From sequence record DRR723986_5413: a stretch of 34,124 bases of DNA, one strand, 5' to 3'. Positions 9,982 to 27,943 of this stretch are shown here, piece after piece (within the stretch, counting starts at the first letter, position 1; every line of letters begins with the position of its first letter). Made by a program: the position numbers and the translations under genes. The notes under the pieces are model-generated. The model saw only the letters and a list, made by a program, of their open reading frames with translations, did not search any database and was not told where the DNA came from.

Positions 9982-10138
9982 GCCGCTGTGAGCCGGGGCG
10001 GGGAGGGTACGGCTTCGCGGCGGCGGCCCTCCGGGCTGCCCTCGGTCGGTCAGGAGCCCGGTTCCCGGTCTCCCTCCACTCCCTCGGCGCTCGCCTCTGA
10101 TGCTGCGCCGTACCCTCCCCGCCCCGGCTCACTGCGGC
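9982..10138. repeat. 157-bp element bounded by 32-bp inverted repeats (REP-doublet/MITE-like)
   Basis: 9982-10013 GCCGCTGTGAGCCGGGGCGGGGAGGGTACGGC matches the reverse complement of 10107-10138 at 31/32 positions; lies between convergent rpiA and the FAD oxidoreductase. Confidence 0.85.
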
Positions 10139-10167
10139 ACCAATACCCCCTCGAAACCCAGCCGTTA

Positions 10168-11580: not shown

Positions 11581-11737
11581 AATTACGCTGCGGTCTGGTA
11601 AAGGGAAAATATGGTAGCATGCGCGACTTTTTTCGAACCGGCCCTCGCGGGGGGCGCGTAAGCAACTATGCGGGGCATGGACTGCCCGCTCAGCCCTTGC
11701 GTAACATTCCCCAAGGCCCGGCAACAGGCAACAACCG

Positions 11738-12313
11738 GTGGATTCATCCGATCCCGTGAGTGACCACGCGAAAAAGCAGTTCCTGGAAGAACTCGTCCAG
11801 GAACACGGCCTGTACCTGGAAAAATACCTCGCCCGCAAGCTGGACAGTCCTGAAGACGCAGCCGAGGTAGCCCAGGAGGCTTTTCTGCGCCTGCACCGCC
11901 TGGAGGCTCCCGAGCAACTCGACAACGCCCGCGCATTCCTGTTCCAGGTTGCCACCAACCTGGCGGTAGACCAGCTACGCCGTCGGCAGCTTCACTTCCG
12001 CTTCATCCGCGTCGAGAAAAGCCTGGCGCCGGAAGGCGAACCCATCGACATCAATGCCAGCGCCGCTTCACCCGAACAGATACTCGGTGCCAGGGAAAAG
12101 CTGGCCACTATCTACCGCGCAATCGACGAACTACCGCTGAAGGTCAGGCAGGCCTTCCTGCTCCACCGGCAGAGCGGCATGTCCTACAACGACATTGCCC
12201 AGGAGATGCAGGTTTCAGTATCAAGTGTCGAAAAATACATCCTGCAGGCGCTGAAGCACTGTCGAACAAGCCTGGCGACTTATTTCCCGGGCGATGATAA
12301 ACCGGAAAATTGA
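11738..12313 (+). CDS. ECF RNA polymerase sigma factor, FecI-like
   Basis: Region 2 DAAEVAQEAFLRL...AFLFQVATNLAVD; region 4 LPLKVRQAFLLHRQSGMSYNDIAQEMQVSVSSVEKY; upstream of fecR. Confidence 0.93.
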   Translation: MDSSDPVSDHAKKQFLEELVQEHGLYLEKYLARKLDSPEDAAEVAQEAFLRLHRLEAPEQLDNARAFLFQVATNLAVDQLRRRQLHFRFIRVEKSLAPEGEPIDINASAASPEQILGAREKLATIYRAIDELPLKVRQAFLLHRQSGMSYNDIAQEMQVSVSSVEKYILQALKHCRTSLATYFPGDDKPEN

Positions 12314-12437
12314 TGATTTTTTTATGCGGGATAGGCCCGCTTGCTCGTTAAACGAAGACAACAATACAACTCACCGGGCCAACCGACCCGGGCCGTGGTA
12401 GGGATGCGAGGGCAGGACTGTCTTCGCGTGGGAACAA

Positions 12438-13421
12438 GTGATGAAACAGGCGCGCACAGAGCAGTACGAGCAGGAGTGTGAAGCCGCACTGGGCTGGATT
12501 GCCCGGCTGCGCCGTCATGACACTGCTGATCAGGACCGGGCGGACTTCGCCCTGTGGCTGGCAGGTAGCGCCGATCGTCGGCACGCCATGGATGCCATGC
12601 TTGATCTCTGGGACGACCTCGGCGTCGTCCGCGAGCTGACTTTCCCCGAAACCGCGCCTCAAGAAGCGGCAAATCAATCCCGCTTCTGGTTGGGCTCCGC
12701 AGTAGCGGCGGCGGCCTGCCTGGTGGTCGCTATTCTGCTCTGGCCGCTGGGCCAGCAGGTTTCCGAGCCACTGGAATTCCGCACCGCGATCGGCGAGCGC
12801 CAGAGTTTCGAACTGCAGGACAGCTCGAGGCTTAACCTGAACACCAACTCGCAGGTAAGCGTGCACTTTGCCGACGACCAGCGCCAGCTGATCCTGGTTA
12901 GCGGGGAAGCCTTCTTCGAAGTGGCACCGGATGCGGACCGCCCGTTCCACGTGGACGCGGGCAACACCCGGACTACCGCTATCGGCACCGCCTTTAACAT
13001 CCGGCGCACTGAGGACAGCACCCAGGTCACCGTTACCGAAGGCGTCGTCCGGGTTGTCGAGCTGGGCGACACCGGCAATCGAGCGCCCCACCAGGATACC
13101 CTGCGCGCCAGCCAGCGGCTGCTCGCCACGCGTCAAGGCCTGGGCGCTGCCGAAGCGGTCGACGACGACCGGGACATTGCCTGGCGCAATGGTGAACTGA
13201 TCGCGGATGGCATGTCATTGCACGATCTGGCCAGGGAGATCGAGCGCTATCACGACACCCATATCCTCATTGCCGACCGCGACCTGGCCGCACTTTCCGT
13301 CTCCGGCGTGTTTCGCCTGGACCAGCCGGACACCATGCTGCAGGCTGTGGCGCTCAGTCTCGATCTGCAGATCAAGCCCCTCGATGAACACAGCGTGCAG
13401 TTGCTGAAAGCCCCCCGGTAA
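12438..13421 (+). CDS. FecR-family anti-sigma/transmembrane sensor
   Basis: N-terminal AxxW...FxxWL motif, TM helix, TAIGE...LQDSSRLNLNTNS, GEAFFEVAPD, AIGTAFNI, AWRNG, VSGVF. Confidence 0.93.
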   Translation: MMKQARTEQYEQECEAALGWIARLRRHDTADQDRADFALWLAGSADRRHAMDAMLDLWDDLGVVRELTFPETAPQEAANQSRFWLGSAVAAAACLVVAILLWPLGQQVSEPLEFRTAIGERQSFELQDSSRLNLNTNSQVSVHFADDQRQLILVSGEAFFEVAPDADRPFHVDAGNTRTTAIGTAFNIRRTEDSTQVTVTEGVVRVVELGDTGNRAPHQDTLRASQRLLATRQGLGAAEAVDDDRDIAWRNGELIADGMSLHDLAREIERYHDTHILIADRDLAALSVSGVFRLDQPDTMLQAVALSLDLQIKPLDEHSVQLLKAPR

Positions 13422-13543
13422 GATATAACAATCCCTCGGGTCCACTCGTGGACTAAAAATTCACATTTTTCAAAAGGTTACGACCACGGGTCGGGGCCTC
13501 TACTGCCATGTCGTTTGCGCTGCCGGCAAGACGTCGTTCAGGG

Positions 13544-16501
13544 ATGAACACCGCACCAATACGCACTGTACGGCACCTGGCCGTTGCAGCCCTCCTGCTG
13601 TGCCTGTCGCTGACGGTCCGCGCCAACATGGCCACGACCTCCCATTTCGTCATCGATGCCCCCCAGCTGTCCCCCGCGCTGATCCAGTTCAGTCGCCAGA
13701 GCGGGCTGTCGATCGTGTTCCCCGACCACGTTACCCGCAACCTCAGCAGTGACCCGGTCATCGGGACCCTGAGCAATGCCGAGGCGCTGGACAGCCTGCT
13801 GGAGGACACCAGGCTCGAGTGGCAACTGGTAGAAAGCCGGATCATCGCGATACATGAGAGCGACTGCGCCCGCCGACGCGATTGCGCGACCACCGAAGAC
13901 ATCCTTGAGCGCTATCCGGTCTATGTTCCGGGCATGGAGCAGACCTACGTCTACGGCAGCCAGATGACCGGTTCCCGGATCCGGCGCCCCGGCTACGACA
14001 GCGCCGCGCCAGTGGATGTGCTCTCTGCCCCCGACATCGAGCGCAGCGGTGCGCAGACCCTGGGTGAATTGCTCAAGTTCGTCCCGGCGGTGGCGGGCAA
14101 TTCGCTCAGCACCGCGATATCGAACGGCGGTGACGGCACGGCAACTGTGACCCTGCGCGGCCTGCCGGCCAGCAATACCCTGGTCCTTATCGATGGCCGG
14201 CGGGTGGCCAACGATGGGCTGGCCGGGGATTCAGTCGACCTGAACAGCATTCCACCGGCGGCCGTGGAGCGGATCGAGATCCTCAAGGACGGCGCTTCGG
14301 CAATCTATGGCTCGGACGCCATCGCCGGCGTGGTCAACGTGATCATGAAGCGCGATTTTTACGGCTTTCTGGGCGAAACCTATTACGGACAGGCCGCGGC
14401 CGGCGATCTCGAAACCCAGACCCACACCGTGCAGTACGGAACCGGCTTCCAGCGTGGTTCATTCTTCGTTTCGGCATCCCACTACAGCCAGGACCCCATT
14501 TTCAGCCGCGACCGCGACGTCTCGCGCTCTGCGGATACTCGCCTGCTGGGCGGCAGCGACCAGCGCTCCAGCGCTACGCCCGATGCGCGGGTAGTGCTGC
14601 CCGACGGCAGCGCACTGATTGCGACCAGCGAAGGCTATCGGCCGGTCGGTGAGGAGGATCGTTTCGACTACCCCGCCTTTACCTCCGCTGTTGTACCCCT
14701 GGAACGTACCAGCCTGTACAGCAATGCCAGTTTTGACTTCAGCGACCAGGTAGTCGCCTACATCGACGCCAGCTATGTCGATACCGATGCCACCGCGACC
14801 CTGGCACCGGTGCCGGTGTTCACGGCGTTCGAACAAGTGCCGATCACCGTGGCGGCGGACACAATCTACAATCCGTTCAACGTCCCCCTTGAGGATGTCC
14901 GGCGGCGGCTGGTGGAGGCCCCCACGCGGACCCAGCGCAACGACTCCAACACCACCCGCTTCGGCCTGTCGCTGGAGGGCCTCGCGGCCGACTGGAACTG
15001 GGACCTGAGTTATAGCTGGAGCCGGACCGAGGCTCGGGAGACCCTGCTTAACCTGGTGGACGCCGACCGGCTCGCCCGCGCGGTGGGGCCCGCCAGCGGC
15101 TGCCAGGGTGCTGAGCTCGATGGCTGTACGCCGGTGAACCTGGTCGGCCCCGCGGGGAGCATTACCCCGGCGCAAGTTGATTACCTGCTCACCCGTGCCG
15201 AGATTACGGGCTACGCCAAGCTCGCCAGCTTCAGCAGCCACATCAGCCGCTCCCTGTTTGACATGCCCGGCGGCCGCGGCGACCTGGCCCTGGGGGTAGA
15301 GCATCGCATGGAGTCCATCCGGCAACGGCCCGATGCCCTGCTCACCGCCAACGGCACCGTGGGCGGCACCAACCGTCAGCCCAGCAAGGGCGACCGGCGG
15401 ATCATGGAATTCTACGCGGAGACGATCCTGCCAATGTGGCGCTCTGAGAGTGGCCTGTCATCGCTGGTGCTGGAAGCCGCGTTGCGCTATTCCGACTACA
15501 GCGACTTCGGCGACAGCAGTACCCCGAAGCTCGGTGCCAGACTCCAGCTCGGCCCAAGCGTCCTGCTGCGTGCCACCTACGCGCGGGGATTCCGCGCGCC
15601 CAGCCTGAACGAACTTTACGAGGGCAACAGCGAAAGCCAGGCCTTCATCAGCGACCCCTGCACCCAGGCCAGCAATGTCGCGGTCCTGCCCGGCTGCTCG
15701 CAGCAGGCGGACCCCAGCCGAATCCAGTTTCTGACGGTGAACGGCGGCAACCCGGAACTGGAGGCAGAGACTGCGAACAGTTTCAGCGCGGGCATGGTGT
15801 GGACGCCGGACTTTCTCACGGGACTGACGATGTCGGCAGATGTCTTCCAGATCGAACAGCAAGATGTGGTGGCATCCAGCGCCCAGTTCATCGTCAACCA
15901 GAACGCACGCTTCGGCCGCTTCGAAGACAATGTCCAGCGTGACCAGGCCGGCAATCTCAGTCTGGTCACGGCAACCAATATCAACGTCGGTGAACGCGAT
16001 ATCCGCGGCCTCGACCTGGCGTTCAATTACCAGTACCCCGCGCGTCGCCTGGGCAAGTTCTCGATCGTCGGTAATGCCACCTACATCGACCAGTTCCTGG
16101 CCAGGCTGGATGCCTCCGCGCCGTCCCTGGACCTGGCGGGGACGTTTCGCGACGAGGCCTCGGAGGGACTGGGCGGAATTCCGGAGTGGAAAGCACAGGT
16201 AGGCTTGCGCTGGGCGCGGGAGCGCTGGCGGGCCAGCTACGATTTTCACTTTGTGAGCGAGCTGGAAGAGATTGTCCCGGGAACCGGGGCAACGCGTTCG
16301 ATCGATGACTGGCTGGTGCAGGATATCCAGCTGAGCTACAAATTCGACGTGCTGGAGGGCCTGCGGCTCAGCCTGGGCGTGGACAACATCTTTGATGAGG
16401 AAGCACCGCTGGCAGCCTCAGCCTTCAACGACAATATCGATGGACGCACCCATGAACTCAAAGGCCGGTATTGGTACACCAAGCTGAGTCAGCGGTTTTG
16501 A
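13544..16501 (+). CDS. TonB-dependent receptor/transducer with N-terminal STN signalling domain
   Basis: Signal peptide ending VRA; STN-like segment (QLSPALIQFSRQSGLSIVF...EALDSLLEDTRL); plug motifs LRGL, TLVLIDGRR, IEILKDGASAIYGSDAIAGVVNVI; FRAPSL; C-terminal F. Alternative start 13508. Confidence 0.93.
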   Translation: MNTAPIRTVRHLAVAALLLCLSLTVRANMATTSHFVIDAPQLSPALIQFSRQSGLSIVFPDHVTRNLSSDPVIGTLSNAEALDSLLEDTRLEWQLVESRIIAIHESDCARRRDCATTEDILERYPVYVPGMEQTYVYGSQMTGSRIRRPGYDSAAPVDVLSAPDIERSGAQTLGELLKFVPAVAGNSLSTAISNGGDGTATVTLRGLPASNTLVLIDGRRVANDGLAGDSVDLNSIPPAAVERIEILKDGASAIYGSDAIAGVVNVIMKRDFYGFLGETYYGQAAAGDLETQTHTVQYGTGFQRGSFFVSASHYSQDPIFSRDRDVSRSADTRLLGGSDQRSSATPDARVVLPDGSALIATSEGYRPVGEEDRFDYPAFTSAVVPLERTSLYSNASFDFSDQVVAYIDASYVDTDATATLAPVPVFTAFEQVPITVAADTIYNPFNVPLEDVRRRLVEAPTRTQRNDSNTTRFGLSLEGLAADWNWDLSYSWSRTEARETLLNLVDADRLARAVGPASGCQGAELDGCTPVNLVGPAGSITPAQVDYLLTRAEITGYAKLASFSSHISRSLFDMPGGRGDLALGVEHRMESIRQRPDALLTANGTVGGTNRQPSKGDRRIMEFYAETILPMWRSESGLSSLVLEAALRYSDYSDFGDSSTPKLGARLQLGPSVLLRATYARGFRAPSLNELYEGNSESQAFISDPCTQASNVAVLPGCSQQADPSRIQFLTVNGGNPELEAETANSFSAGMVWTPDFLTGLTMSADVFQIEQQDVVASSAQFIVNQNARFGRFEDNVQRDQAGNLSLVTATNINVGERDIRGLDLAFNYQYPARRLGKFSIVGNATYIDQFLARLDASAPSLDLAGTFRDEASEGLGGIPEWKAQVGLRWARERWRASYDFHFVSELEEIVPGTGATRSIDDWLVQDIQLSYKFDVLEGLRLSLGVDNIFDEEAPLAASAFNDNIDGRTHELKGRYWYTKLSQRF

Positions 16502-16515
16502 GCAGCACTGACGGG

Positions 16516-17421
16516 ATGAGCTCCAGCGATCCGTGGTCCCTCTACTGGCAGGGCGGCCAGCTTCACAGCTGCATCACCACGCAGGACCCCGGTGACCAGG
16601 GGCCGATCGAAGCGCTCTGGGCAGACCTGGCCAAGAGCCTGCCGCCGGCTGCGCGCGTGCTGGACCTCGCCAGCGGCAACGGCGCTGTGCCGCGGGCCCT
16701 GCTGGCAGCCAATCCGGGGCTGGCTATCACCGCCGCAGACCTGGCAGATATCGCCCCGGAAAAACTGCAGGCCAGCTTCGAGGTCCTGGCCAGGGTGACT
16801 TTTCTTCCCAGGACAGACATCTGCAAGCTGCCGTTCACCGACGCGCAGTTCGACGCGGCCACCAGTCAGTTCGGACTGGAATACGCGCCCCGTGAACCGG
16901 CACTGCGAGAAGCCGCGCGAGTAATGAAACCCGGCGCCCCACTGCGCCTGCTGTTGCACCACCGCGACAGCGGGGTCGTACGCCCGGCGGCAGCAGTGAT
17001 CGCGGAGATCGGGCGCCTGTTCCAACCCGGCGGACTGCTGGAAGCGCTTAGGCAATTCATCGCCGGCGATTGCGATCTGCCTGGTCTGGAAACTGCGGGG
17101 CAGGCCTACCTCAACAATCCGCAGGAAAAAACCCGCCACATATCCGGCCAGATCCTGACCGGCATCGGCCAGGTGATCCGGGATTTCCAACGCGATCCCG
17201 CACGCGCCGGCGCGCTGGCGCGGTCAATGCAGGAGCGCCTGCATGCGGAGCGCCTGCGCCTCGCGCAGCTGCAATCCGCCGCACTGGACCCGGCTGGCAT
17301 GGAGAGCTTTTGTGCGACAGCCAAGGCGGCCGGCTTCGCGGTGGAGCTCGTCGAAGCACTGCGGACGGGTGAGGACCGCGAGGCACTGGTGGGCTGGGAG
17401 CTGCGGGCCCGGCGGAAGTAG
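16516..17421 (+). CDS. Class I SAM-dependent methyltransferase
   Basis: VLDLASGNG (motif I), LPFTDAQFDAATSQFGLEY, RVMKPGA; start ATG 16516, 15 nt after the receptor stop. Confidence 0.88.
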   Translation: MSSSDPWSLYWQGGQLHSCITTQDPGDQGPIEALWADLAKSLPPAARVLDLASGNGAVPRALLAANPGLAITAADLADIAPEKLQASFEVLARVTFLPRTDICKLPFTDAQFDAATSQFGLEYAPREPALREAARVMKPGAPLRLLLHHRDSGVVRPAAAVIAEIGRLFQPGGLLEALRQFIAGDCDLPGLETAGQAYLNNPQEKTRHISGQILTGIGQVIRDFQRDPARAGALARSMQERLHAERLRLAQLQSAALDPAGMESFCATAKAAGFAVELVEALRTGEDREALVGWELRARRK

Positions 17422-17481
17422 GTGCCACAGGCGGCGCTGGAAGGTATCATGCGCAGCCACTGTTTTACTTAAGGACGAGAC

Positions 17482-18270
17482 ATGACTGATACTTCGCAAA
17501 CGGCCGGTGGTGCCGGAATTCGCGCCCCCGAAGGAACGATGTTCCTGTACAAGCAACCGGAATTTCTGAACCGGGAAGAACACGGCAAACTGGGCTGGAG
17601 AACGCCGGAGAAGCCCTTCGAATTCGCCGCCAACATCACCTCAGTACCGCTGGTTGCCACCGAAATCAGCTCCGCGCAGAAGAACTACCCGGTCGTATTT
17701 TCCGGCAAGGAAAACGCGGTGCCCCTGGCCGTGGTCTCGCTGATGAAGGACCGGAATATGTTTGTCGATGGAGACGGCAAGTGGGAGGCCGGCGCCTACA
17801 TTCCATCCTATCTGCGCCGCCATCCCTTCGCCACGGCAATGGGCCAGGACGACCAGTTCGCAATTGTCATCGACCGCGCCTCAGCCGCCATCAGTGACAA
17901 TCCGGAAACCCCGTTCTTCAACGGTGACGTGGTTTCTGAACAAACCCAGGGCATGATCGATTTCTGCGGCCGCTTCGAAGCCGAGCGCCGCCGGACCAAG
18001 GAATTCAGTGACAAGCTGGCCGAGCTCAACCTGCTAAGGGAGCAGCAGGCCACCGCCGGCGAAGGCGACCAGGCGAAGCCCATAGCGAGCTACTTCGCGG
18101 TAGACGTGGACAAGCTGAACGAGCTGCCGGCCGAGGAGCTGCTCACCCTGCACCGGGCCGGCTACCTGTCCTTCATTTTTGCGCACTTGTTCTCGCTGGA
18201 AAACTGGAACCGGCTGCTCGCCCGCCGGGCCGGCATGATCGCCGAGGCCGACGCTCGGGTCCAGATCTAG
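17482..18270 (+). CDS. SapC family protein
   Basis: LYKQPEFLNREEH, YPVVF, NMFVD..GKW...YIPSYLRRHPF, DVDKLNELP, FAHLFSLENW; strong TAAGGA RBS. Confidence 0.88.
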   Translation: MTDTSQTAGGAGIRAPEGTMFLYKQPEFLNREEHGKLGWRTPEKPFEFAANITSVPLVATEISSAQKNYPVVFSGKENAVPLAVVSLMKDRNMFVDGDGKWEAGAYIPSYLRRHPFATAMGQDDQFAIVIDRASAAISDNPETPFFNGDVVSEQTQGMIDFCGRFEAERRRTKEFSDKLAELNLLREQQATAGEGDQAKPIASYFAVDVDKLNELPAEELLTLHRAGYLSFIFAHLFSLENWNRLLARRAGMIAEADARVQI

Positions 18271-18291
18271 CGGCCTGGTCCCGATCGGCCA

Positions 18292-19494
18292 GTGGTTGCG
18301 GCAGGGGACAATGCGTCCACTGATGCCCTCACCGCCGAGGCAGACAGGGCTTTTGACCGTGGTGACCACCGCCACGGTCTGGACCTGCTGCGCAGGGCAG
18401 CCGCCGGCAGCAGCGATTCCGCGCTGCTGCACAGACTCGCTGTGGTCGAAGAGCAGATAGGTACTCAGCAGCTGGCCCTTGCAGCCCATTTCAGGTGCCT
18501 CGCGCTCGCCCCGAACAATCCGCTGGCCTACCTTTATGCCGGCTACAGCCTGCAGCAACAGGGACGCACTAACGATGCGCTGAATGTGTTGTCGCTCGGC
18601 TCTGACCTCGATCCGACGCTGTTGGCCGCAGCAATCCCGGAAGAACCGTCGCCTACTGTGCAGCGCAAACAGCTATCGCGGGTACTGCTGCGCCGGCATT
18701 TCAGCGAACTGCATCGCGCCGCCGTTGGCGCAGACGAGGGGTTAGCCAGGGTTCGGGAATCAGTCTGGACCCGCACCCACGACCAGCCGTTTGAGCCGCC
18801 GCGCAGTGGCCAGCAGCCGCAGTTCTTTTACCTGCCTGGGCTGACCCCCATTCGCTTTGCCGACACTGCGGCCTGGCCATGGGCTACCGCGTTGCAGTCC
18901 AGGTCGCAGGATATCATCGCTGAGTATCGCAGCGCCCAGTCGCGTGTCGAGAGCATGGGACGGCCCTATCTGGATAGCGCGAACTTTACCGGAGGCGATT
19001 TTGACGAGCTGGCGGGTTCGCACAACTGGACCGCATTGGACCTCTACAGGAACGGCAGTCGCAACGACGCACTGTGCCAACACTTCCCCCGTACGCTGGA
19101 AGCGCTGGCGCAGGTTCCGCTGTATGGGATGGACAGAAACCCCTACGAAGTGTTTTTCTCAGTTCTGCGGGCCGGGCAACACATCAAGCCGCACTACGGG
19201 CTGTCCAACCATAGCTTGACCGTGCACTTGCCGATCATCACCCCTGAGTCTTGCCAACTGGTGGTAGACGGGGAAAGTCGCAGCTGGTCAGCCGGTCAGC
19301 TGCTTGCCTTCGACGACACCTTTTTACACGAGGCAGTCAATGCCAGCAACGAGGACCGCGTTGTGCTTATTTTTTCTGTCTGGCATCCGGAACTCACCCT
19401 GGCAGAGCGCGAGGCCGTGCAGCGTAGCTTTAACCGCCGCAGTGCCTGGCTCGCAGCTCGGTCCCTTCCCCCCGGAGTTGAACAGGGCCACTAA
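18292..19494 (+). CDS. TPR-containing aspartyl/asparaginyl beta-hydroxylase (AspH-like 2OG-Fe(II) oxygenase)
   Basis: FSVLRAGQHIKPHYGLSN..LTVHLPI, FDDTFLHEAVN, RVVLIFSVWHPEL; N-terminal TPR-like helices. Confidence 0.9.
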   Translation: MVAAGDNASTDALTAEADRAFDRGDHRHGLDLLRRAAAGSSDSALLHRLAVVEEQIGTQQLALAAHFRCLALAPNNPLAYLYAGYSLQQQGRTNDALNVLSLGSDLDPTLLAAAIPEEPSPTVQRKQLSRVLLRRHFSELHRAAVGADEGLARVRESVWTRTHDQPFEPPRSGQQPQFFYLPGLTPIRFADTAAWPWATALQSRSQDIIAEYRSAQSRVESMGRPYLDSANFTGGDFDELAGSHNWTALDLYRNGSRNDALCQHFPRTLEALAQVPLYGMDRNPYEVFFSVLRAGQHIKPHYGLSNHSLTVHLPIITPESCQLVVDGESRSWSAGQLLAFDDTFLHEAVNASNEDRVVLIFSVWHPELTLAEREAVQRSFNRRSAWLAARSLPPGVEQGH

Positions 19495-21350
19495 GGGGTA
19501 GCGAGACATCCCTCTCGCTCAAGCGCTTCAAACAAACCGGGCAGCAACTGCTCATAGCGCTGCCAGCGACCAACGGCAGCGTCGGATATCGTGCGCCTGA
19601 CCTGACGCTCACTGAAGGTAAAGCTCGGGGCATCATCTCCTCCGGAAACGAGGCATTCCGGTCGCCACTCAAGACCGCAGAACTGCGCCAGCTCATGACT
19701 TGCCTGCTCCGGCCTGGCGACAAAACCCTCAAACTGCAGATCCAGCACCCGCTCCGGGTCCAGCCGCGCCCAGTGATCCATCAAATCACGGGCTTCCCGC
19801 CAGGCGTGGGCCAGGGCGGTGGGATCACAGGCATAGGTGTGCCCTTCCGGAAACGGACGTTGGTAGATCGACAGACAGGTATCGCGGGGGTCACGGCGCA
19901 TCTGGATAACCCGTGCCTCGGGATACATGCCGAGAATCATGCCGACGTGCAGGAAGTTGTGCGGCATCTTGTCGGTGAAGACCCCGGCGAAACCCGGCGT
20001 CAGCGCCGCATAGCGTGTTGCCAGTGACTGCCACTGGCGCGAAGACAGTGCCAGAGGTGCGGGCAGGCGCCCGGCGTTCACGTCCCGCTGATACTGCGCA
20101 ACTACAAAGCCCAGCGCTTCGTTTTCACCGCCAGCGACCACGCCAGGCAAGCGCGACAATACCTTTTCCACCAGCGTGGTTCCCGAGCGTGGCATACCGA
20201 GCACGAAAATTGGACGCGCCGCCCCCGGCGGTGCCGGCGTGTCGGGCAGCGCCCTAAACTGTTCACGGAGCCGCTGCATGCGGGCGGTTTCAAACACTGC
20301 ATCGTAAGCCCGGCCCGTCGCCGTCAATGCCTGCAGCTGCAGGCCATTGGCCTGCTCCAGGGCATCGACCGCCGCCGCGAGCTCACTCCCGCGATCACAG
20401 GCATCGGCCAGGGCGTAGTACATCAGGGTCCGGAAATAGGGGCTGTTGCCGACATCCGCAAGCTGCCCGGACAGCTGGTCAACCAGTTCGTCCAGTTCCG
20501 AGCCGTCGGCCGTTTCCATGCGCACCGACCAGGCCTGCCCATGTCCCGGCTGGCGCTCCAGCGCAGCAATGCTGCTGGTCCTGGCCCCCGCATCGTCGCC
20601 CCGCAGGCGATCCAGGCGGGCACGCAACACATGATAATCAGCGCTGTCGGCTCCCGCCTGCCGTGCCAGCTGCAATTGCCGGTCGCTGTGCTCGACATCC
20701 CTGGCAATCAGGTAGAGGTCGGCGAAACGCAGGTAATCAATGGCCCGGGGTTCGATCAGGCCCATGTAGTGCTGGTAGCTGGCAATCGCCAACGGGTAAT
20801 CCCGAAGTTTGCCCGCCGCTACGGAGAGTTCACTGGCGATCGCCGGATCGTGGCTATTGTCAGCAGCGAGCTGCCTGAGCAGGGCAACGGCCTGATCCCA
20901 GTCACCCAGCGCCCCCATGGCCCGGGCACACAAAATCGATGTGCCGGCTTGCGTGACAGGACAACTGCGCAGCAACTCCAGCGCGGCTTCCGGATTTCCC
21001 AGATCGAGCAGCAGCTTGCCCAGGGCATTGGCAAAGTGCTCGTCGCCCCTGGCCAGGCGCGCACCGTGCAGCGCCTGTGTCACCGCCTCGGGATCGCGGG
21101 CGCATCGGTGCAGGGCAAGCGCGAGCTGCAGGGCAATATCGGCCGCATTGGGTTCAATCTGCGCGGCCTGTGCCAACAGCTCTGCTGCAGCCTGGGCCTG
21201 GTTGCCTTGCATGGCGAGGGTTCCCAGCCCATACAGTGCGCTGGCATTGCGTGGATCCGCGGCCAGCAGCTGTCGGTACAGGCGCTCGGCCTCCGCCAGT
21301 TCGCCGCGCCGGTGGGCCGCTTCAGCCAGCTGTATCAGGTCGGGTGACAC
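19491..21350 (-). CDS. TPR-containing PAPS-dependent sulfotransferase
   Basis: 5'-PSB loop PIFVLGMPRSGTTLVE, DKMPHNF, 3'-PB motif RRDPRDTCLS, SERQVRR; TPR-rich N-terminal region. Probable GTG start at 21350 (ORF track 21392). Confidence 0.9.
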   Translation of the reverse strand: MSPDLIQLAEAAHRRGELAEAERLYRQLLAADPRNASALYGLGTLAMQGNQAQAAAELLAQAAQIEPNAADIALQLALALHRCARDPEAVTQALHGARLARGDEHFANALGKLLLDLGNPEAALELLRSCPVTQAGTSILCARAMGALGDWDQAVALLRQLAADNSHDPAIASELSVAAGKLRDYPLAIASYQHYMGLIEPRAIDYLRFADLYLIARDVEHSDRQLQLARQAGADSADYHVLRARLDRLRGDDAGARTSSIAALERQPGHGQAWSVRMETADGSELDELVDQLSGQLADVGNSPYFRTLMYYALADACDRGSELAAAVDALEQANGLQLQALTATGRAYDAVFETARMQRLREQFRALPDTPAPPGAARPIFVLGMPRSGTTLVEKVLSRLPGVVAGGENEALGFVVAQYQRDVNAGRLPAPLALSSRQWQSLATRYAALTPGFAGVFTDKMPHNFLHVGMILGMYPEARVIQMRRDPRDTCLSIYQRPFPEGHTYACDPTALAHAWREARDLMDHWARLDPERVLDLQFEGFVARPEQASHELAQFCGLEWRPECLVSGGDDAPSFTFSERQVRRTISDAAVGRWQRYEQLLPGLFEALEREGCLATP

Positions 21351-21415
21351 GGTGGAAGGTGATCCATTAGGATTGGGCAGGCAACAGCGCACATGCTAAC
21401 AAAAAAGGGGCTTTA

Positions 21416-22132
21416 ATGAGACTTGCGGCAAAGGCCGGCGACTGGGCCGGACAGTTTGCGCGAAACAGCCGGTTGCAGGTACCCGGACTGCTGGATGACG
21501 CGAGCGCAGAGCGCCTGCACCGGAGTCTCGCCGCGCAGGCGCAATGGAACCTCGTGTTCAACCGCGCGGGGGAGCATGTGGATATCGGCGCTGACAGCAT
21601 GGACCTGTGGAACGAGGACCAGCGCAAGCAGTTCAACGAGCTCGTCTTCGCCCAGGCAAGCGACGGTTTCCAGTACCTGTACAAGGCAGTTCCGATCTAC
21701 GACGTCTACCATGACGGCTCACTGCCGGGACACTTCTTCAACAGTTTGTTTGAGTTTCTCAATAGTGCGCCATTCCTGGACTTCGCCCGGGAGTTACTGG
21801 ACCGGCCCGACATTGGTTTCTGCGATGCCCAGGCCACCTGTTACCAGGCCGGCCACTTCCTGACCACCCACGATGATGCTACCGAGGGCAAGAACCGGGT
21901 GGCAGCCTACGTTATCAATATGACGCCCGAGTGGAATCCCAACTGGGGCGGCGCGCTGCAGTTTTTCGATGAACGCGGCAACATCGAACAGGGATTCACC
22001 CCCGCGTTTAACGCCCTCAACGTGTTCCGTATCCCGCAGCGCCACGCCGTGGAGTATGTCACGCCTTTCGCTCGGGGCTCACGCCTGTCGATCACTGGCT
22101 GGTTGCGCAGCGGGCAGGATCCCCGCGGCTGA
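21416..22132 (+). CDS. 2OG-Fe(II) oxygenase, prolyl-hydroxylase (Tpa1/OGFOD1-like) type
   Basis: YQAGHFLTTHDD (HxD), RVAAYVINMTPEW..WGGAL, PAFNAL..F, HAVEYV, RLSITGW; AAGGGG RBS. Confidence 0.88.
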   Translation: MRLAAKAGDWAGQFARNSRLQVPGLLDDASAERLHRSLAAQAQWNLVFNRAGEHVDIGADSMDLWNEDQRKQFNELVFAQASDGFQYLYKAVPIYDVYHDGSLPGHFFNSLFEFLNSAPFLDFARELLDRPDIGFCDAQATCYQAGHFLTTHDDATEGKNRVAAYVINMTPEWNPNWGGALQFFDERGNIEQGFTPAFNALNVFRIPQRHAVEYVTPFARGSRLSITGWLRSGQDPRG

Positions 22133-23965
22133 TCACTCGCCCTGGGCGAGTGGTATCACATCGAACGGCGCTGTCAGGCGGAAGTCATCTTCTGCGCAAG
22201 CGAAGTCGAAGGTGCCGTGCCAGGCATAGGACGGGAACAGGGCAAGCTGCCCGGGCCGCGGATGAACTACCCGTTCGATCACTTCCCGCTCGCCCAGGTT
22301 GAGCGCGCTTTCCCCGAATTTGATGCATCCCGCAGTACTGCCCGCATCGTCCATGGCGGCGGGCAGGTGGATATAACAGGCGGAGCTGATCCAGCCTTCC
22401 GGGTGCACGTGGTTTACATGGTAACCACCGCTGCGCAGCCGGACCGACCAGGAGCCTGAAAACTCAAAGCGGGACGATTTTCGCGAAAACAGCGGGTGCG
22501 AGGGATCATCCGGCATCCCGACTATGTACTCGCGCACCGCTTCCGCCAGCGCGTCGCGGTACTGGCGGATCACCGGGTGGGGTTTGTGTAGCAGGCGCCC
22601 GGGCGTCTGGGTGCCGCTGACCAGGGTTTGTCGCATGGGGGCAGCGCGAGTGCTGTGCATACCCAGCAGCACCTCCTGCAGGGTCTGCAGAAACGCCTGC
22701 AATGAGCTGTAGCCTGCGGGTGTTGGCAGGGTCGATACCCGGACATCCCGCTCATAGTCGATCAGCCAGTGGTAGCGCGGATCACCCTGCAGGCGCCAGC
22801 AGGTACCGATCAACGCCCAGGTCAGCTGGTTGTCCGGCTCCTTGTGCTGCTCGGCTTCAAGCACCTGCATTGCAGTTGCGTAGTCTCCCTCCAGAATCAG
22901 CAGGCGCGCAAAGTCGTGGACCACGTCCCGCGACCGGACCAGGGCGAGGGACGACTGGAAGCACTCGCGGGCGCGCAGGTAATCCCGGTCGTTGGCATAC
23001 AGTTCACCCGAGGCGCGCAATAGCTCCGGCGTGCGCTCGATGCGCAGTGATTCATTGACCAGCTCCCGGGCCTCGGCGAAGTGCTCGCTGTTGATTAACA
23101 GGCGCAGCAGGGAATGGCGCAGGGCCAGGTTTCGGGGATGCTCAGCCAGCGCCTGCCGGTAGGAAGCCGTGTAGTCATCCTCCCGACCCAGCTGCCAGCG
23201 CAATTCACTCAGGGTCTCATGGGCAAGCACGTAGCCCGGGTCCTTGCCGATGGCGCTTTCGTAACACCGTTCAGCCAGCACATAGTCCCGCATCTCGAAG
23301 GCTGCATTACCCCGGTTAAGGTCGATCTCGGCTACTCCCGGTGCGAGTTGAGCGGCGCGCTCAAAGCAGGCACTCGCCCGCTCCGGATCCTCGCCAAGCT
23401 TGTAGCACAGGCCCAGGTTATGGATCGCATTGACGTATTCCGGGGCGATCTCCAATGCCGCCCTGTAGCAGCTGACTGCACGCTCATAGTCTTCCTGTCC
23501 GCGATAGACATTACCCAGCGCGGTAAACACTGCCGGGTCAGCCGGTGCTAGTCGCGTGGCCTGCTCCAGCACCTCGCCGGCCTCCTGCAGTCGACCCGCG
23601 GCAAGCAGCAGCAGGCCCAGGTTCTTGATCCCGTCGAGGTAGTCCGGCTTCAGGCTTACCGCCTTGCGATAGTGTTGCTCTGCGGCCGCATTCTCTGACA
23701 GCGCCCGGAGGCTGTTACCCAGATTGTTATGCACCTCTGGCTGGGGCGGATGGGCGCGCAGCGATGCCTCCAGGGCAGTAACTGCATCCTGGTGCTGCTT
23801 GAGGGCCGCGTGCGCGAGCCCCTTGAGATGCAGGAAGTTCGGATCGGTAGACCGTTGCCGCAGGCGTTTTTCCAATTCTTTGATGGCACGAGCGGGTTCC
23901 GCTCTGACCAGCGTCGCAAGCTGGGCGAGTAACTGCTGGTAGCGCTGTTGCGGGTCAGGCGGCAT
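22133..23965 (-). CDS. TPR-repeat protein with C-terminal putative 2OG-Fe(II) oxygenase domain (TIGR02466-like)
   Basis: Many TPRs (HNNLGNSL, NLGLLL, ALGNVY, HNLGLCY) followed by SWSVRL..GGYHVNHVHPEGWISSACY...PGQLALFPSYAWHGT...RLTAPFDV. Confidence 0.88.
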   Translation of the reverse strand: MPPDPQQRYQQLLAQLATLVRAEPARAIKELEKRLRQRSTDPNFLHLKGLAHAALKQHQDAVTALEASLRAHPPQPEVHNNLGNSLRALSENAAAEQHYRKAVSLKPDYLDGIKNLGLLLLAAGRLQEAGEVLEQATRLAPADPAVFTALGNVYRGQEDYERAVSCYRAALEIAPEYVNAIHNLGLCYKLGEDPERASACFERAAQLAPGVAEIDLNRGNAAFEMRDYVLAERCYESAIGKDPGYVLAHETLSELRWQLGREDDYTASYRQALAEHPRNLALRHSLLRLLINSEHFAEARELVNESLRIERTPELLRASGELYANDRDYLRARECFQSSLALVRSRDVVHDFARLLILEGDYATAMQVLEAEQHKEPDNQLTWALIGTCWRLQGDPRYHWLIDYERDVRVSTLPTPAGYSSLQAFLQTLQEVLLGMHSTRAAPMRQTLVSGTQTPGRLLHKPHPVIRQYRDALAEAVREYIVGMPDDPSHPLFSRKSSRFEFSGSWSVRLRSGGYHVNHVHPEGWISSACYIHLPAAMDDAGSTAGCIKFGESALNLGEREVIERVVHPRPGQLALFPSYAWHGTFDFACAEDDFRLTAPFDVIPLAQGE

Positions 23966-23983
23966 CGAACAGGAATTCCGGGC

Positions 23984-24012
23984 AAAAAAAACGGCGGGCC
24001 AAGGCCCGCCGC
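23984..24012 (-). terminator. Rho-independent terminator of the second TonB-dependent receptor
   Basis: On the minus strand CGGCGGGCC-TT-GGCCCGCCG followed by T8, ~25 nt after the stop codon. Confidence 0.9.
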
Positions 24013-24037
24013 ATTAGTGTAGCAGTGTGAGCGCCGA

Positions 24038-26887
24038 TTAGAACTTGTAGCTGGCGCTCAGGAAGTAACGCGGTCCAAACAACGGGTAGGTTGATGGGAA
24101 CGTGTTCGCCTGCTCCTGCGAGTCACCCAGCTTGGTCGGCTCGGTATCGAGGATGTTGGTAGCACCGAAGCTGAGGTTCAGGCCCTGCTCGAAAGCGTAG
24201 GCAACCGTCAGATCCAGGTAGTACTCTTCGTCGATGGTCGGCGCCGGCAGATCGCTGGCGGATACACCCGCGTTCTCGATCTGGTCGTCGTCGGTCTCAC
24301 CGATGTAGCGCAGCAGACCGGAGAAGGTCCAGCTACCCGTACGCCAGGTGGCGCGGGTGTTCCACTGGATTTCCGGCAGCGGTGAGCCACAGGTGTTACC
24401 GAAGGTTCCGGCACAGACGTCAACACGATCAGCCAGGTCGGCAACCGGGGTCACGTCGTACGTGTCCAGGAAGGTGCTGTTGAAGTTGATGTCCAGCGTG
24501 GAACCGCTGCTGCCGATACCGAAACCAAAGTCGGTAGAGTAGTACACGTTGAAGTCAACACCGGAGGTTTCGATCTTACCGATGTTGGCGTTCAGTACGT
24601 TAACCACGTCAACGTTGCTGTCGGCGCGACGATCAATCGCCTGACAGAACGCGGAGCCGGCATCCTGAACCACGTTGTAGCAGAGGTCCAGAACGTTGGT
24701 TACGCTGCCACCGAGAACGGAGATCGCGTCTTCGATTTCGATGTCGTAGTAGTCAACCGTGATGTCCAGGCTGTCGATGGGCTGCCATACGAAACCAACC
24801 GTGTAGGTGTTGGAGGTTTCTTCCTGCAGATCGGGGTTACCACCGAAGCGGCCTTCGATCTGGGAGTTGGCCTGGGTGAACTGGCCCACCAGGGCAGGAT
24901 CAACACCGGTCGCGGCACACAGTGCTGCATCGGTTACACCCGGCTGGAAACCACCGACGCTACAGGGGTCATCGGCGCCCGGGAAACCGTTGGACTGGCC
25001 AAGGAACAGCTCGGATACGTTAGGTGCACGTACCGCTTCCTGGTAACCAACACGGAACTTCAGGCTATCGATCGGCGAGTAGTTGATCGCCGCGGCGAAG
25101 GAGTTCACCTGATCGTCCAGGTTGTCGTAGTCAGACGTACGCGCAGCACCCCACAGGGTCAGGTCTTCAGCGAAGGCCTTGCCCTGCAGCAGAGGTACAG
25201 AGATTTCCGCGAAGAACTCGGTGGCCTTGTAGCTACCGACAGTTGCTTCACCGGCGTTGAAGCCCAGTACGTCACCTGATGCCAGGAAGGTATCAGGACG
25301 GAAGCTTGACTCGTCTACGCGGTGCTCGTAACCGAACACAACGGCAACCGGGTACTCAGCAGTCGGGATAGTCCACAGGTCGCCGAATACGCTGGCCTGG
25401 ATAACTTCCTGGGAGATGCTGGTGATGTTGGTCGCGCCGATGTTGACGAAATCAACCGCTTCCTGGCTGATGTTGCCGGCGCCCCAGATGTTGATCGGGA
25501 CACAGCCGCCAGACGGGTTCTGACACGCGGTGCCGGCATCATTGGTCGCAACAGCCTGGATGAAGCGCGACGCAGAAACGTCGTTATTCAGGGCCTGATT
25601 GTTGTCCAGGTTTGAGTAGCTGTAGTAAGCATCGTAGGACCAGTTATCCGTGATGTCACCGTTGGCACCAACCAGCACGCGGAACGCGTCACGCACGTCG
25701 ATCGCCTGGCGGGAGCCGTTCTCAACCATACGACGACCGACGAAACCAAGTGCGTTGTCATCGCCATCAACCACGCCGTCACCGTTAGTATCGGTGCGAA
25801 TGGTGTCGAGAGCGCGCTGGGCTTCCGGAGAGAAGAACGCGCTGTCCGGGTTGATTTCAACCGTGGTAAATGCCGGGGTTGGCGCCAGTTCCTGGGGAAC
25901 CTTGTTGTACGAGTAAGCGAACTCACCGTAGGTGCGCACGTGCTCGTTCACGTCATAGTGCGCGAAGGCACTGATCAGGTAACGTTCCTGCGGCAGCTGG
26001 AGGAAGTTGTCCGGCGCGTAGTTGAAGCGGCTGTCGGGCTCTACCCAGGGCAGGAGCTCACCGTTCGGGCCGAAAGTACCCAGCGACTGACCGGTTACGG
26101 GATCCGTCGGGTTATCGAACAGGCGGGTGCCTGGTACACCGGAAGAGCCACCAGCAACCAGCGTGGGGTTGCCATTGGCATCGGTGCTTTCGGTCAGCGC
26201 AACATCGGAGAAGTCACGATCACCCTGGTACAGTGCTTCACGCTTGCTGTACGAGGCGTAGACAACCGCGTTACCACGACCATCGGCGAAGTTGCCACCA
26301 ATCGTGATGTCCATGTTGTACTTCTCAGCGTCGCCGTCTTCAGCCATGTCGTACAGGCCGGTGATTTCCACGCCTTCGAAGTCGTCGATCATTTCGAAGT
26401 TGACAACACCCGCGATAGCGTCGGAACCGTATACCGCAGAAGCACCGCCGGTTACCACGTCAACGCGCTTGATCAGCGTGCCGGGGACGGTGTTCAGGTC
26501 AACAACACCGGTCTGGGTAGCGGGAATCCAGCGACGGCCGTTTACCAGTACCAGGGTACGTGAAGAGCCGAGACCGCGAAGGTCGACACGCGCGGTACCG
26601 TCACCCGGGTTGTTGGAGCTGGGTCCAAAGCTGGGCAGGGTAGATGGCAGTTCTGCCAGCTTCTGTTCAACGTTGATGGTACCGGAGAGTTTGAATTCCT
26701 CGGCATTTACGACCGTGTACGGGCTGACAGCCTCCAGATCCGGACGCTTGATCCGGGAACCGGTGATGACAACCTCTTCGATCATTTGCTCTTGTGCAAT
26801 CGCGAGCTGTGCCACGGGCAGGGATGCGGTAACCGCACCTGCACCAATAGCAAGCCTGACTGCTGAAGTCAGCTTATTCGTCTTCAT
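24038..26887 (-). CDS. TonB-dependent receptor (no STN domain)
   Basis: Signal peptide, TonB box EEVVITGSRI, LRGLGSSRTLVLVNGRR, GASAVYGSDAIAGVVNF, RAPNVSELF, C-terminal YKF. Confidence 0.95.
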   Translation of the reverse strand: MKTNKLTSAVRLAIGAGAVTASLPVAQLAIAQEQMIEEVVITGSRIKRPDLEAVSPYTVVNAEEFKLSGTINVEQKLAELPSTLPSFGPSSNNPGDGTARVDLRGLGSSRTLVLVNGRRWIPATQTGVVDLNTVPGTLIKRVDVVTGGASAVYGSDAIAGVVNFEMIDDFEGVEITGLYDMAEDGDAEKYNMDITIGGNFADGRGNAVVYASYSKREALYQGDRDFSDVALTESTDANGNPTLVAGGSSGVPGTRLFDNPTDPVTGQSLGTFGPNGELLPWVEPDSRFNYAPDNFLQLPQERYLISAFAHYDVNEHVRTYGEFAYSYNKVPQELAPTPAFTTVEINPDSAFFSPEAQRALDTIRTDTNGDGVVDGDDNALGFVGRRMVENGSRQAIDVRDAFRVLVGANGDITDNWSYDAYYSYSNLDNNQALNNDVSASRFIQAVATNDAGTACQNPSGGCVPINIWGAGNISQEAVDFVNIGATNITSISQEVIQASVFGDLWTIPTAEYPVAVVFGYEHRVDESSFRPDTFLASGDVLGFNAGEATVGSYKATEFFAEISVPLLQGKAFAEDLTLWGAARTSDYDNLDDQVNSFAAAINYSPIDSLKFRVGYQEAVRAPNVSELFLGQSNGFPGADDPCSVGGFQPGVTDAALCAATGVDPALVGQFTQANSQIEGRFGGNPDLQEETSNTYTVGFVWQPIDSLDITVDYYDIEIEDAISVLGGSVTNVLDLCYNVVQDAGSAFCQAIDRRADSNVDVVNVLNANIGKIETSGVDFNVYYSTDFGFGIGSSGSTLDINFNSTFLDTYDVTPVADLADRVDVCAGTFGNTCGSPLPEIQWNTRATWRTGSWTFSGLLRYIGETDDDQIENAGVSASDLPAPTIDEEYYLDLTVAYAFEQGLNLSFGATNILDTEPTKLGDSQEQANTFPSTYPLFGPRYFLSASYKF

Positions 26888-27333
26888 AATTACCCCTGTA
26901 GTAACTGAGAACGTTCTTTAAAGTCAGATTATGATTACCAGATCTCGGCTTAATCCCTAGCCTCTGGGTCTGGATGTATCGCTCATAAAACGGTTATGAA
27001 AAGTTCACCCTCAATTCCATGAAGTGTGAATTTTCACATTTTTTTATGAATATGAGCATTCTTTTTATAGTCCAGGCACTCACTCATGCCCAACCATGTC
27101 CGGCCACCCTATACCCGAAAGCCCAAACTGGTAAGTTCAAACCGCTCCTTTGCGACATTTTCACGCTTTAGGGGCCCAACTTTTCTGTAAACCGGCCATT
27201 CGCGGGCTTTCCGGGGCCCAAGCCCCGGTAGCATCCGGCCCTGGCACACCCGGGGACATCCTCAGCCGCTTCCCTTCGCAACGGCAGCACTGCATCATGC
27301 CTTGCATCGCACAGCCCCCGGAACCTCCAGCCC

Positions 27334-27936
27334 ATGGACACCCTGATCGCCACTTTTATTACCCTGGTCTTCGTCATGGACCCGCTGGGCAACGTACCGA
27401 TCTTCCTGTCGGTGCTGAAGGATGTCCCCGCCAAAAGACGCCAGTGGATCATCCTGCGCGAGCTGCTGATCGCGCTGGTCGTGCTGCTGGTCTTCCTCTA
27501 TGCGGGCAGCACACTGCTACAGGTGATGGGCCTGCGCCAGGAATCGGTCAGCATCGCCGGCGCAATCATCCTGTTCCTGATCGGTATCCGGATGATTTTC
27601 CCTTCGCCCCACGGGCTAATGGGCGATACGCCAGAAGGCGAGCCGTTCATCGTACCGCTGGCAATTCCGGCAGTGGCAGGCCCGTCTTCCCTCGCGATCG
27701 CCATGTTGATGGTAAACAGCGATCCGGGGCGCATGGTGGAGTGGACTATCGCCCTGATCGCCGCCTGGGCCGTGGTCGCGGTGCTGCTGATGGCCTCGCC
27801 CTTACTGCTGCGCGCGCTCGGCAACCGCGGCCTGATCGCCATGGAACGCCTGATGGGTATGATCCTGGTGATAATCGCGGTGCAGATGTTCTTCGATGGG
27901 GTAATTACCTTCCTGCAGCTGAAGGTCGGCCCCTGA
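27334..27936 (+). CDS. MarC/YhgN family (NAAT) membrane protein
   Basis: MDPLGNVPIF, EPFIVPLAIPAVAGPS, AMERLMGMIL; about six hydrophobic segments. Confidence 0.92.
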   Translation: MDTLIATFITLVFVMDPLGNVPIFLSVLKDVPAKRRQWIILRELLIALVVLLVFLYAGSTLLQVMGLRQESVSIAGAIILFLIGIRMIFPSPHGLMGDTPEGEPFIVPLAIPAVAGPSSLAIAMLMVNSDPGRMVEWTIALIAAWAVVAVLLMASPLLLRALGNRGLIAMERLMGMILVIIAVQMFFDGVITFLQLKVGP

Positions 27937-27943
27937 AGTCGGC

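Follow-up and report, generated by a model that had tools for sequence, protein, structure and literature searches.

High-affinity uptake of nutrients by marine Gram-negative bacteria runs mainly through their TonB-dependent receptors. In the parts of their paper drawn on here, Iyer, Abhiman, de Souza and Aravind (2010; PMC2938197) predicted gene neighbourhoods that unite a TonB receptor, SapC, a tryptophan halogenase and JmjC or classical 2-oxoglutarate (2OG) dioxygenases, with variants that add sulfotransferases and methylation and a predicted siderophore-like metabolite as the product; the same parts hold beta-hydroxylase/sulfotransferase operons, proposed to act by hydroxylation and then sulfation of collagen-like proteins. 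According to the excerpt of Kenney and Rosenzweig (2013; PMC3621798) considered here, some methanobactin operons carry a FecIR-like pair and an N-terminally extended transporter. Here we analyse a locus of ten genes with likenesses to both, at positions 11738–26887 of sequence record DRR723986_5413, a stretch of 34,124 nt (the window, to whose positions all coordinates refer) that occurs in marine plankton metagenome runs. The locus encodes a FecI-type sigma factor with extracytoplasmic function (ECF), a FecR-type protein, two TonB-dependent receptors and the six enzymes of the mechanism proposed below, namely a methyltransferase, SapC, three 2OG oxygenases and a sulfotransferase. These genes, with their conserved catalytic residues, are linked to one receptor clade and to a signalling trio of sigma factor, FecR and receptor 1.

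Like the neighbourhoods of Iyer et al., as far as the parts of that paper used here describe them, the locus combines SapC and a TonB-type receptor with several 2OG dioxygenases that are unrelated to one another (in one family joined to tetratricopeptide repeats, TPR), a sulfotransferase and methylation, and its distribution in alpha- and gammaproteobacteria is sporadic. Unlike them, it has no tryptophan halogenase and no JmjC/Cupin_8 protein in its ten genes or flanks, and it has, in addition, AspH-type and TPST-like enzymes fused to TPRs, a second receptor and a FecI/FecR switch. Tryptophan halogenase and Cupin_8 genes adjoin SapC paralogues elsewhere in related genomes. The original prediction, made from the sequence of the window, had presented this as a candidate undescribed system; that description was too broad, since the same parts of Iyer et al. 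2010 (PMC2938197) already predict such neighbourhoods computationally. Literature searches, with subscription journals outside their coverage, found no experimental study of the gene set; the cluster type is thus known from computation and, as far as those searches show, uncharacterised at the bench. The siderophore-like product of Iyer et al. is not favoured here.

Recurrence of the gene set

Seven genes form the core of the guild: receptor 2 (24038–26887, minus strand), a TPR-2OG-FeII_Oxy_5 protein (22133–23965, minus strand; TPR-OG5), a single-domain oxygenase (21416–22132, plus strand; OG4), a TPR-fused sulfotransferase (19491–21392, minus strand), a TPR-fused AspH-type oxygenase (18292–19494, plus strand; TPR-AspH), SapC (17482–18270, plus strand) and a methyltransferase (16471–17421, plus strand). 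At least five of the seven occur together in seven other loci (L001, L002, L003, L004, L034, L086 and L087), carried by two Halieaceae, two Arenicella, Yunchengibacter and genomes G588 and G619; L086 and L087 contain all seven, in a gene order different from that of the window. The closest loci found belong to a Halioglobus metagenome-assembled genome and to Candidatus Seongchinamella marina.

Surveys that started from single genes gave the following picture. One scan of species genomes recovered 34 sulfotransferase loci, five of which (two Halieaceae, two Arenicella and Yunchengibacter salinarum) hold receptor 2 with at least three among TPR-OG5, OG4, the methyltransferase, TPR-AspH and SapC; the remaining 29 gave matches to the sulfotransferase or TPR only. 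The C-terminal half of TPR-OG5, used as query against 301 genomes of the same order, found matches in 19, and among the 20 loci examined (three of them on contigs shorter than 5 kb) a receptor is adjacent in 11, a sulfotransferase in nine and an AspH-type gene in five; TPR-OG5 is the gene most often adjoining a receptor. OG4 has matches in 9 of 401 genomes of the class, with a guild neighbour in four of ten loci examined, and of the 17 genome labels clustered, 10 have the methyltransferase family. Co-occurrence of the guild genes exceeds chance, and the ten genes belong to a real guild. The proposal that these families are functionally associated had been open to the objection that they might not co-occur in other genomes; this objection fails, as they recur together there, accompanied by a specific receptor clade.

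A reduced module of receptor, TPR-OG5 and sulfotransferase lies beside fba and an alpha/beta hydrolase gene in three loci (L088, L091 and L101). The fba-alpha/beta-hydrolase flank (27944–29982 in the window) is common to the window and to the genomes with only the reduced module (L088, L091, L101 and L102); the guild therefore sits at a conserved chromosomal site with variable content.

Receptor 2 and the receptor clade

Receptor 2, the core receptor of the guild, is a protein of 949 residues with plug and barrel, and is 88% identical to its Halieaceae orthologues, 60% to those of Arenicella and 50% to that of Yunchengibacter. Among the 15 receptors that adjoin TPR-OG5, 154 positions are conserved at 85% or more. 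These 15, together with three more receptors of the same loci that include the putative transducer of the window, split from five receptors of SapC/halogenase glycan loci with a Shimodaira–Hasegawa-like approximate likelihood ratio (SH-aLRT) support of 100 in a quick tree that was rooted at its midpoint and has its long branches flagged. Judged from their sequences, the guild receptors form a clade of their own that is specific to the guild. A complex prediction of TPR-OG5 with residues 30–230 of receptor 2, run without controls, scored 0.00, a value that speaks neither for nor against an interaction, and the AspH consensus of epidermal growth factor-like domains, C-x-D/N-x4-Y/F-x-C, is absent from both receptors.

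The region upstream of receptor 2 (26990–27039) holds conserved non-coding blocks, a likely operator and promoter: a palindrome (27024–27039) and the spaced motif TTGAGGG-N15-CGT (26990–27014), both at an unchanged distance from the start codon when L001, L002 and the window are compared. Each block is found once in the window, which for TTGAGGG-N15-CGT is no more than expected by chance. In three Halieaceae genomes the palindrome is a 16-bp element of the type GTGTGAA-WW-TTCACAC, about 150 bp upstream of the receptor 2 start, and is followed by TTGAGGG-N15-CGT and then by two further conserved blocks.

A sigma factor, FecR and a probable transducer

The sigma factor (11738–12313, plus strand) has Sigma70_r2 and Sigma70_r4_2 domains above Pfam cut-offs and is matched by the NCBIfam FecI models at E = 7e-30, below their equivalog cut-offs. 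The FecR-type anti-sigma factor or signal transducer (12438–13421, plus strand) matches Pfam FecR with 83.3 bits against a cut-off of 24 (E = 1.7e-23), and its DUF4880 and FecR_C matches fall slightly below the cut-offs. Receptor 1 (13508–16501, plus strand), 997 residues with plug and barrel, has an N-terminal extension of about 110 residues before the plug. All ten genes named in the original prediction lie where it had placed them with the Pfam domains it had assigned, apart from the STN domain of receptor 1, which Pfam did not detect either in the whole protein (E ≤ 0.01) or in residues 41–131 alone (E ≤ 1). The NCBIfam FecA alignment spans residues 19–280 of receptor 1, the extension is kept in three orthologues (tblastn alignments begin at residues 44–51), and phmmer finds the signalling regions of FoxA, FpvA, PupB and HasR as weak matches (E = 0.0019 to 0.54). 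Receptor 1 is accordingly described here as a probable signalling transducer.

Orthologues of the sigma factor and FecR adjoin the guild in L106, L108 and L111. The complete trio is adjacent to guild genes in genomes G002 and G410 and about 10 kb away from them in G588. The order of the trio in G002 is that of the window, with an FAD oxidase gene upstream and, after the transducer, two small open reading frames (ORFs) followed by TPR-AspH and an OG4 paralogue; G588 and G410 have an OG4-type gene immediately after the transducer. Control of the locus by a surface signal, as the original prediction had suggested, is plausible: the genes form a co-directional block with short gaps, and the trio accompanies the guild in three other genomes. 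A promoter motif common to four transducer upstream regions could not be defined by eye. In the Arenicella loci (L003:8452-10068 and L004:15675-16944), the place of FecI and FecR next to the guild is taken by an EF-hand gene, the gene of a different ECF sigma factor and a short ORF downstream.

Oxygenases

TPR-AspH (Pfam Asp_Arg_Hydrox, E = 3.5e-41) matches human AspH at E = 6e-26 with 94.7 bits as a single sequence and at E = 4.7e-39 with 137.9 bits as a family profile. Both of its iron-binding residues, H301 and H346, are invariant, and in human AspH the corresponding stretches contain the aligned histidines. Relatives of TPR-AspH are also carried by named isolates of Colwellia, Thalassotalea and Microbulbifer. 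The structural model (predicted local distance difference test, pLDDT, 94.3) is a soluble two-domain protein in which six to seven TPR-like helix pairs precede the oxygenase, and its best Foldseek matches are the human AspH TPR-plus-oxygenase constructs (E about 1e-18, ~380 columns), with which it is collinear over both parts. The oxygenase part superposes on 5apa with a template modelling (TM) score of 0.80, normalised to the target, and a root-mean-square deviation of 3.4 Å; over the whole chain the TM-score to human AspH is only 0.43 because the two domains are oriented differently. The protein thus shares with human AspH (PDB 5jqy and others) the succession of TPR domain and oxygenase and both iron-binding histidines, but differs from it in domain orientation and in being cytoplasmic, no signal or membrane anchor being seen. 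NCBIfam matches to the oxygenase part are confined to OlsC (E = 1.9e-16) and LpxO (E = 2.6e-13), and neither amounts to membership (60 bits against a cut-off of 450 and 49.7 bits against 500, respectively).

OG4 (Pfam 2OG-FeII_Oxy_4/Oxy_3) is a prolyl-hydroxylase-like oxygenase whose sequence matches in PDB are OGFOD1 (E = 1.9e-7), a Pseudomonas putida prolyl hydroxylase (7.9e-5), Tpa1 and PHD1. Its family comprises 249 clusters at E ≤ 1e-30, and it conserves H152, D154, H210 and R223, so that it has the HxD...H iron site and the arginine for 2OG of OGFOD1/Tpa1 and of bacterial prolyl 4-hydroxylases, among them the P. putida enzyme bound to EF-Tu (PDB 4iw3). Unlike the two-domain OGFOD1 and Tpa1, OG4 is a single domain of 238 residues that matches their catalytic domain only, and it is linked to receptor genes rather than to translation genes. 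No PiuC- or YbiX-type NCBIfam model matches OG4, the sole NCBIfam match being YhhC (E = 9e-4), and the Shewanella structure 3dkq, which we take to be PiuC-like, is not among its PDB sequence matches at E ≤ 1.

TPR-OG5 joins Pfam TPR repeats to a 2OG-FeII_Oxy_5 domain, and H516, N518, H519, H521, H583 and R596 are shared without exception by 15 relatives. Its nearest solved structures are those of two uncharacterised proteins, 2rg4 and 3bvc. Weak matches link the Oxy_5 domain to 2OG oxygenases of cyanophages and pelagiphages (29–33% identity, E = 2e-5 to 2e-4, eight records). Syn9, after whose gp52 the dioxygenase family of the Iyer et al. neighbourhoods is named (Syn9-gp52-like), is not among them.

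Sulfotransferase and methyltransferase

The sulfotransferase (Pfam Sulfotransfer_3, E = 2.6e-38) is of the type that uses 3'-phosphoadenosine-5'-phosphosulfate (PAPS). The best non-TPR solved match of its catalytic part is a distant one, human TPST2 (E = 7e-6), and TPST1 and the CurM sulfotransferase are also matched. PRSGTT (401–406) and R500...S508 are near-invariant in 13 relatives and are presumably the two PAPS-binding motifs, the 5'-phosphosulfate-binding (5'-PSB) and 3'-phosphate-binding (3'-PB) motifs. The enzyme has these two conserved stretches in common with TPST1/2, but it is cytoplasmic, bears an N-terminal TPR region (about 380 residues) and has low identity to them. A bacterial protein-tyrosine sulfotransferase is known in RaxST. 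The class I S-adenosylmethionine (SAM)-dependent methyltransferase (Pfam Methyltransf_25 and Methyltransf_11) has generic O-methyltransferases as its nearest solved relatives; its real start is probably an ATG near 16516, because tblastn alignments begin at residues 15–22.

No signal peptide was seen by eye at the N-terminus of any of the six enzymes. The view that the locus draws on protein-modifier families is borne out for three of them, whose nearest solved relatives are AspH, TPST2 and OGFOD1/prolyl hydroxylase/Tpa1.

SapC

The SapC-family protein (Pfam SapC, E = 6e-61) gave a confident AlphaFold2 model (pLDDT 90.4, predicted TM-score 0.85) for which neither Foldseek (E > 0.3) nor VIA-align (best Z 2.5) found a match in PDB, a result that does not in itself make the fold new. 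SapC is present in 54 of 401 sampled gammaproteobacterial genomes, and its neighbours were recorded for 1.5 kb on each side of the 30 best-scoring loci in these genomes, where many large frames have no Pfam match and are possibly wrong frames. Parts of type I or two-partner protein secretion systems (HlyD, OEP, ShlB) lie beside SapC in six of the 30 loci, a weak hint of a link with exported proteins, and halogenase neighbours occur in three. A receptor was not found within 1.5 kb in any of the 30 with our own receptor profile, which detected the receptors of two control loci at E = 5e-101 and 7e-97. The idea that SapC always follows a receptor was accordingly dropped; SapC is not bound to receptors alone, and the other genes that it keeps company with are those of protein secretion.

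Second SapC copies follow receptors inside sugar-utilisation loci in four genomes (L112–L115, in G001–G004). These loci contain GH20 with a BadF-type kinase, LacI with MFS and GH1, or CBM9, along with tryptophan halogenase and Cupin_8 genes, and they match the neighbourhood of Iyer et al. in its classic form.

Gene layout, flanks and accessory genes

The sigma factor, FecR, receptor 1, methyltransferase, SapC and TPR-AspH genes form a same-strand block with 125 bp between sigma factor and FecR and at most 86 bp between later genes. TPR-AspH and the sulfotransferase are convergent, their stops overlapping by 4 bp (19491–19494), and OG4 abuts TPR-OG5 at 22132/22133. A terminator-like hairpin (23991–24012, minus strand), a nine-pair stem with eight G-C pairs followed by a T run, comes after receptor 2. 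The GC content of the window is high, at about 0.57–0.68 per kb.

Housekeeping genes enclose the locus. One flank carries ubiH/visC-like genes, pepP, UPF0149, 5-formyltetrahydrofolate cyclo-ligase, ilvA, rpiA and an FAD-linked oxidase gene (minus strand, from 10168), of which the ORF 9862–11601 proved to be a wrong-frame shadow. On the other side, just outside the locus, stands a gene for a MarC-family membrane protein (27334–27936, plus strand), of which ORF 27150–27959 is likewise a wrong-frame shadow, followed by an alpha/beta hydrolase gene, fba, pgk, gap and tkt. Pfam found no domains of non-ribosomal peptide synthetases (NRPS), polyketide synthases (PKS), siderophore synthases, glycoside hydrolases or transporters in the ten genes and 14 flanking ORFs, as had been claimed for the locus from its sequence. 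No scaffold synthase, exporter or inner-membrane importer was found in the ten genes and the flanking ORFs tested. An all-against-all blastp of ORFs of at least 30 codons from 20 loci, a precursor hunt blind to fast-evolving peptides and to ORFs shorter than 30 codons, returned only shadows of large genes as conserved small ORFs.

Two protein families without a Pfam match accompany the guild in other genomes and are absent from the window. One, small and secreted, ends in a conserved C-terminal region with the motif NGQ(I/V)W and is encoded beside guild receptors in seven related loci (L001:1445-2050, L002:1481-2032, L034:14990-15790, L089:11202-11687, L090:7488-8012, L092:4964-5554 and L095:8750-9460). 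The other, of 344–348 residues, accompanies the guild in three genomes (L001:13966-15012, L003:6586-7620, and L108:3071-4108 and 4128-5171) and has a motif, CGST(F/L)L, that resembles a PAPS-binding loop.

Interpretation of the locus

We tentatively favour signal-controlled tailoring of a polypeptide encoded outside the locus, an account that we hold with somewhat less than even confidence, and we infer the order of its reactions, its regulation and the nature of its substrate as follows. A ligand would bind the transducer receptor (13508–16501), upon which FecR, as its family suggests, would release the ECF sigma factor; the sigma factor, to judge by the gene layout, would drive the co-directional receptor, methyltransferase, SapC and TPR-AspH genes. 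The six cytoplasmic enzymes would then tailor one shared substrate, which the three different 2OG oxygenases would hydroxylate, the PAPS-dependent sulfotransferase O-sulfate and the SAM methyltransferase methylate. This substrate, which could be an exported protein or peptide, with receptor precursors among the candidates, would be held by the TPR arrays that three of the enzymes carry. A polypeptide is favoured because of the protein-modifier affinities of three enzymes, the three TPR fusions, the AspH-like architecture, the lack of a scaffold pathway and the links between SapC and secretion. A narrower version, in which the enzymes act in the cytoplasm on receptor precursors or another envelope protein before Sec export, with hydroxylation followed by sulfation or methylation and with ligand binding dependent on the modification, is rather improbable; autotransporters and the HMW1 adhesin, which are glycosylated in the cytoplasm before they are exported, provide a precedent.

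We caution that several observations weigh against polypeptide tailoring. No substrate gene was found, and no small ORF of at least 30 codons is conserved in the 20 loci; TPR repeats can also hold enzyme complexes and are therefore no proof of a polypeptide substrate; and the second-tier structural neighbours of TPR-AspH are enzymes of free amino acids, L-proline cis-4-hydroxylase (E = 4e-6) and proline 3-hydroxylase. The transducer suits a ligand outside the cell that is sensed and probably taken up, and together with the receptor clade it accords with a specific imported ligand no less well than with a protein substrate. Guild neighbours are missing from 6 of the 20 TPR-OG5 loci and, for OG4 relatives of 30–38% identity, from six of ten loci, and control of the enzyme genes by the sigma factor is read from gene layout only. 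Such neighbourhoods were also interpreted as small secondary-metabolite pathways in the parts of Iyer et al. 2010 (PMC2938197) used here.

The dedicated receptor clade and the transducer keep two small-molecule interpretations alive. The enzymes might make a small amino-acid-derived metabolite, siderophore-like or another metal or nutrient scavenger, that is released, re-imported by the guild receptors and sensed by the transducer. A dedicated receptor clade and a FecIR-type switch are typical of siderophore and chalkophore systems, methanobactin operons unite a TonB-dependent transporter, a FecIR-like pair and a sulfotransferase in the excerpt considered (PMC3621798), and the parts of Iyer et al. 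2010 cited above predict such a product for TonB receptor-SapC-dioxygenase neighbourhoods and for their sulfation and methylation variants. We nevertheless find this possibility doubtful: the window and the conserved loci have no NRPS, NRPS-independent siderophore (NIS) synthetase, ATP-grasp ligase, other scaffold enzyme or exporter, TPR arrays are fused to three of the enzymes and proteins are the targets of the nearest solved relatives, and the minimal module (L088, L091 and L101) consists of receptor, TPR-OG5 and sulfotransferase only. It is unlikely, too, that the cytoplasmic enzymes convert or detoxify a small compound that has been imported, for example a phenolic, part of a xenosiderophore or a compound of the proline or betaine type. 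Fiu-YbiX and PiuA-PiuC are receptor-oxygenase pairs that offer a parallel for such a role, the OG4-type oxygenase directly follows the transducer in G588 and G410, and free-proline hydroxylases are among the structural neighbours of TPR-AspH; but the ten genes and flanks include no inner-membrane importer linked to the locus, sulfation and methylation are unusual in catabolism, the match of OG4 to YhhC and to no PiuC/YbiX-type model argues against kinship with those oxygenases, and the TPR fusions would be left unexplained.

Modification of an envelope lipid is very improbable. Here the AspH-type enzyme would be a counterpart of LpxO or OlsC, with lipid A or ornithine lipids as its target, and this lipid would be decorated further by the methyltransferase and sulfotransferase; the sole NCBIfam matches of the TPR-AspH oxygenase part are indeed to OlsC and LpxO, but both lie far below their cut-offs, human AspH scores higher (94.7 bits by sequence, 137.9 by profile) and shares the TPR layout, and the model is of a soluble two-domain protein. 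We give hardly any credence to the interpretation that these are neighbouring genes without a shared function. Gene order does differ among loci and some single-gene relatives stand alone, but the same families are found together in at least three named lineages in varied gene orders, the receptors form one clade, and neighbouring genes overlap or abut (19491–19494; 22132/22133).

What recurs is a set of cytoplasmic enzymes that are similar to the protein hydroxylases and tyrosine sulfotransferases of animals and are tied to one receptor clade. If their substrate is a protein or peptide, the guild would represent an unrecognised bacterial pathway of post-translational modification and would be relevant to the question of where the AspH, P4H and TPST enzymes of eukaryotes came from; were the receptors themselves the targets, TonB-dependent receptors tailored by enzymes would be seen for the first time, and bacteria would have their own counterpart of the modification of animal secreted proteins by AspH, P4H and TPST. 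If the substrate is a small molecule, the guild would instead mark a new marine compound, sulfated and hydroxylated, for scavenging or signalling. The sigma/FecR switch of the window is a practical handle; overexpression of the sigma factor should turn the system on.

Comparison with known signalling and scavenging systems

In logic, the nearest characterised analogue of the locus is the methanobactin operon, which, in the excerpt of Kenney and Rosenzweig cited above, likewise combines cytoplasmic tailoring that includes a sulfotransferase with a TonB-dependent transporter and, in some operons, a sigma/anti-sigma pair. The locus is not a member of that system: Pfam detected neither the MbnA precursor nor the MbnB, MbnC and MATE exporter families in the ten genes or flanks, and the sulfotransferase here has PF13469 as its best family, unlike the methanobactin enzyme, which that excerpt places in PF00685. 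FecIRA-type signalling systems share with the locus an ECF sigma factor, FecR and an N-terminally extended receptor in the same gene order, but here the STN domain is undetected by Pfam and the downstream genes encode tailoring enzymes rather than an uptake ABC system. This coupling of a tailoring guild to sigma/FecR cell-surface signalling, which recurs in three other genomes, is the new element that distinguishes the locus.

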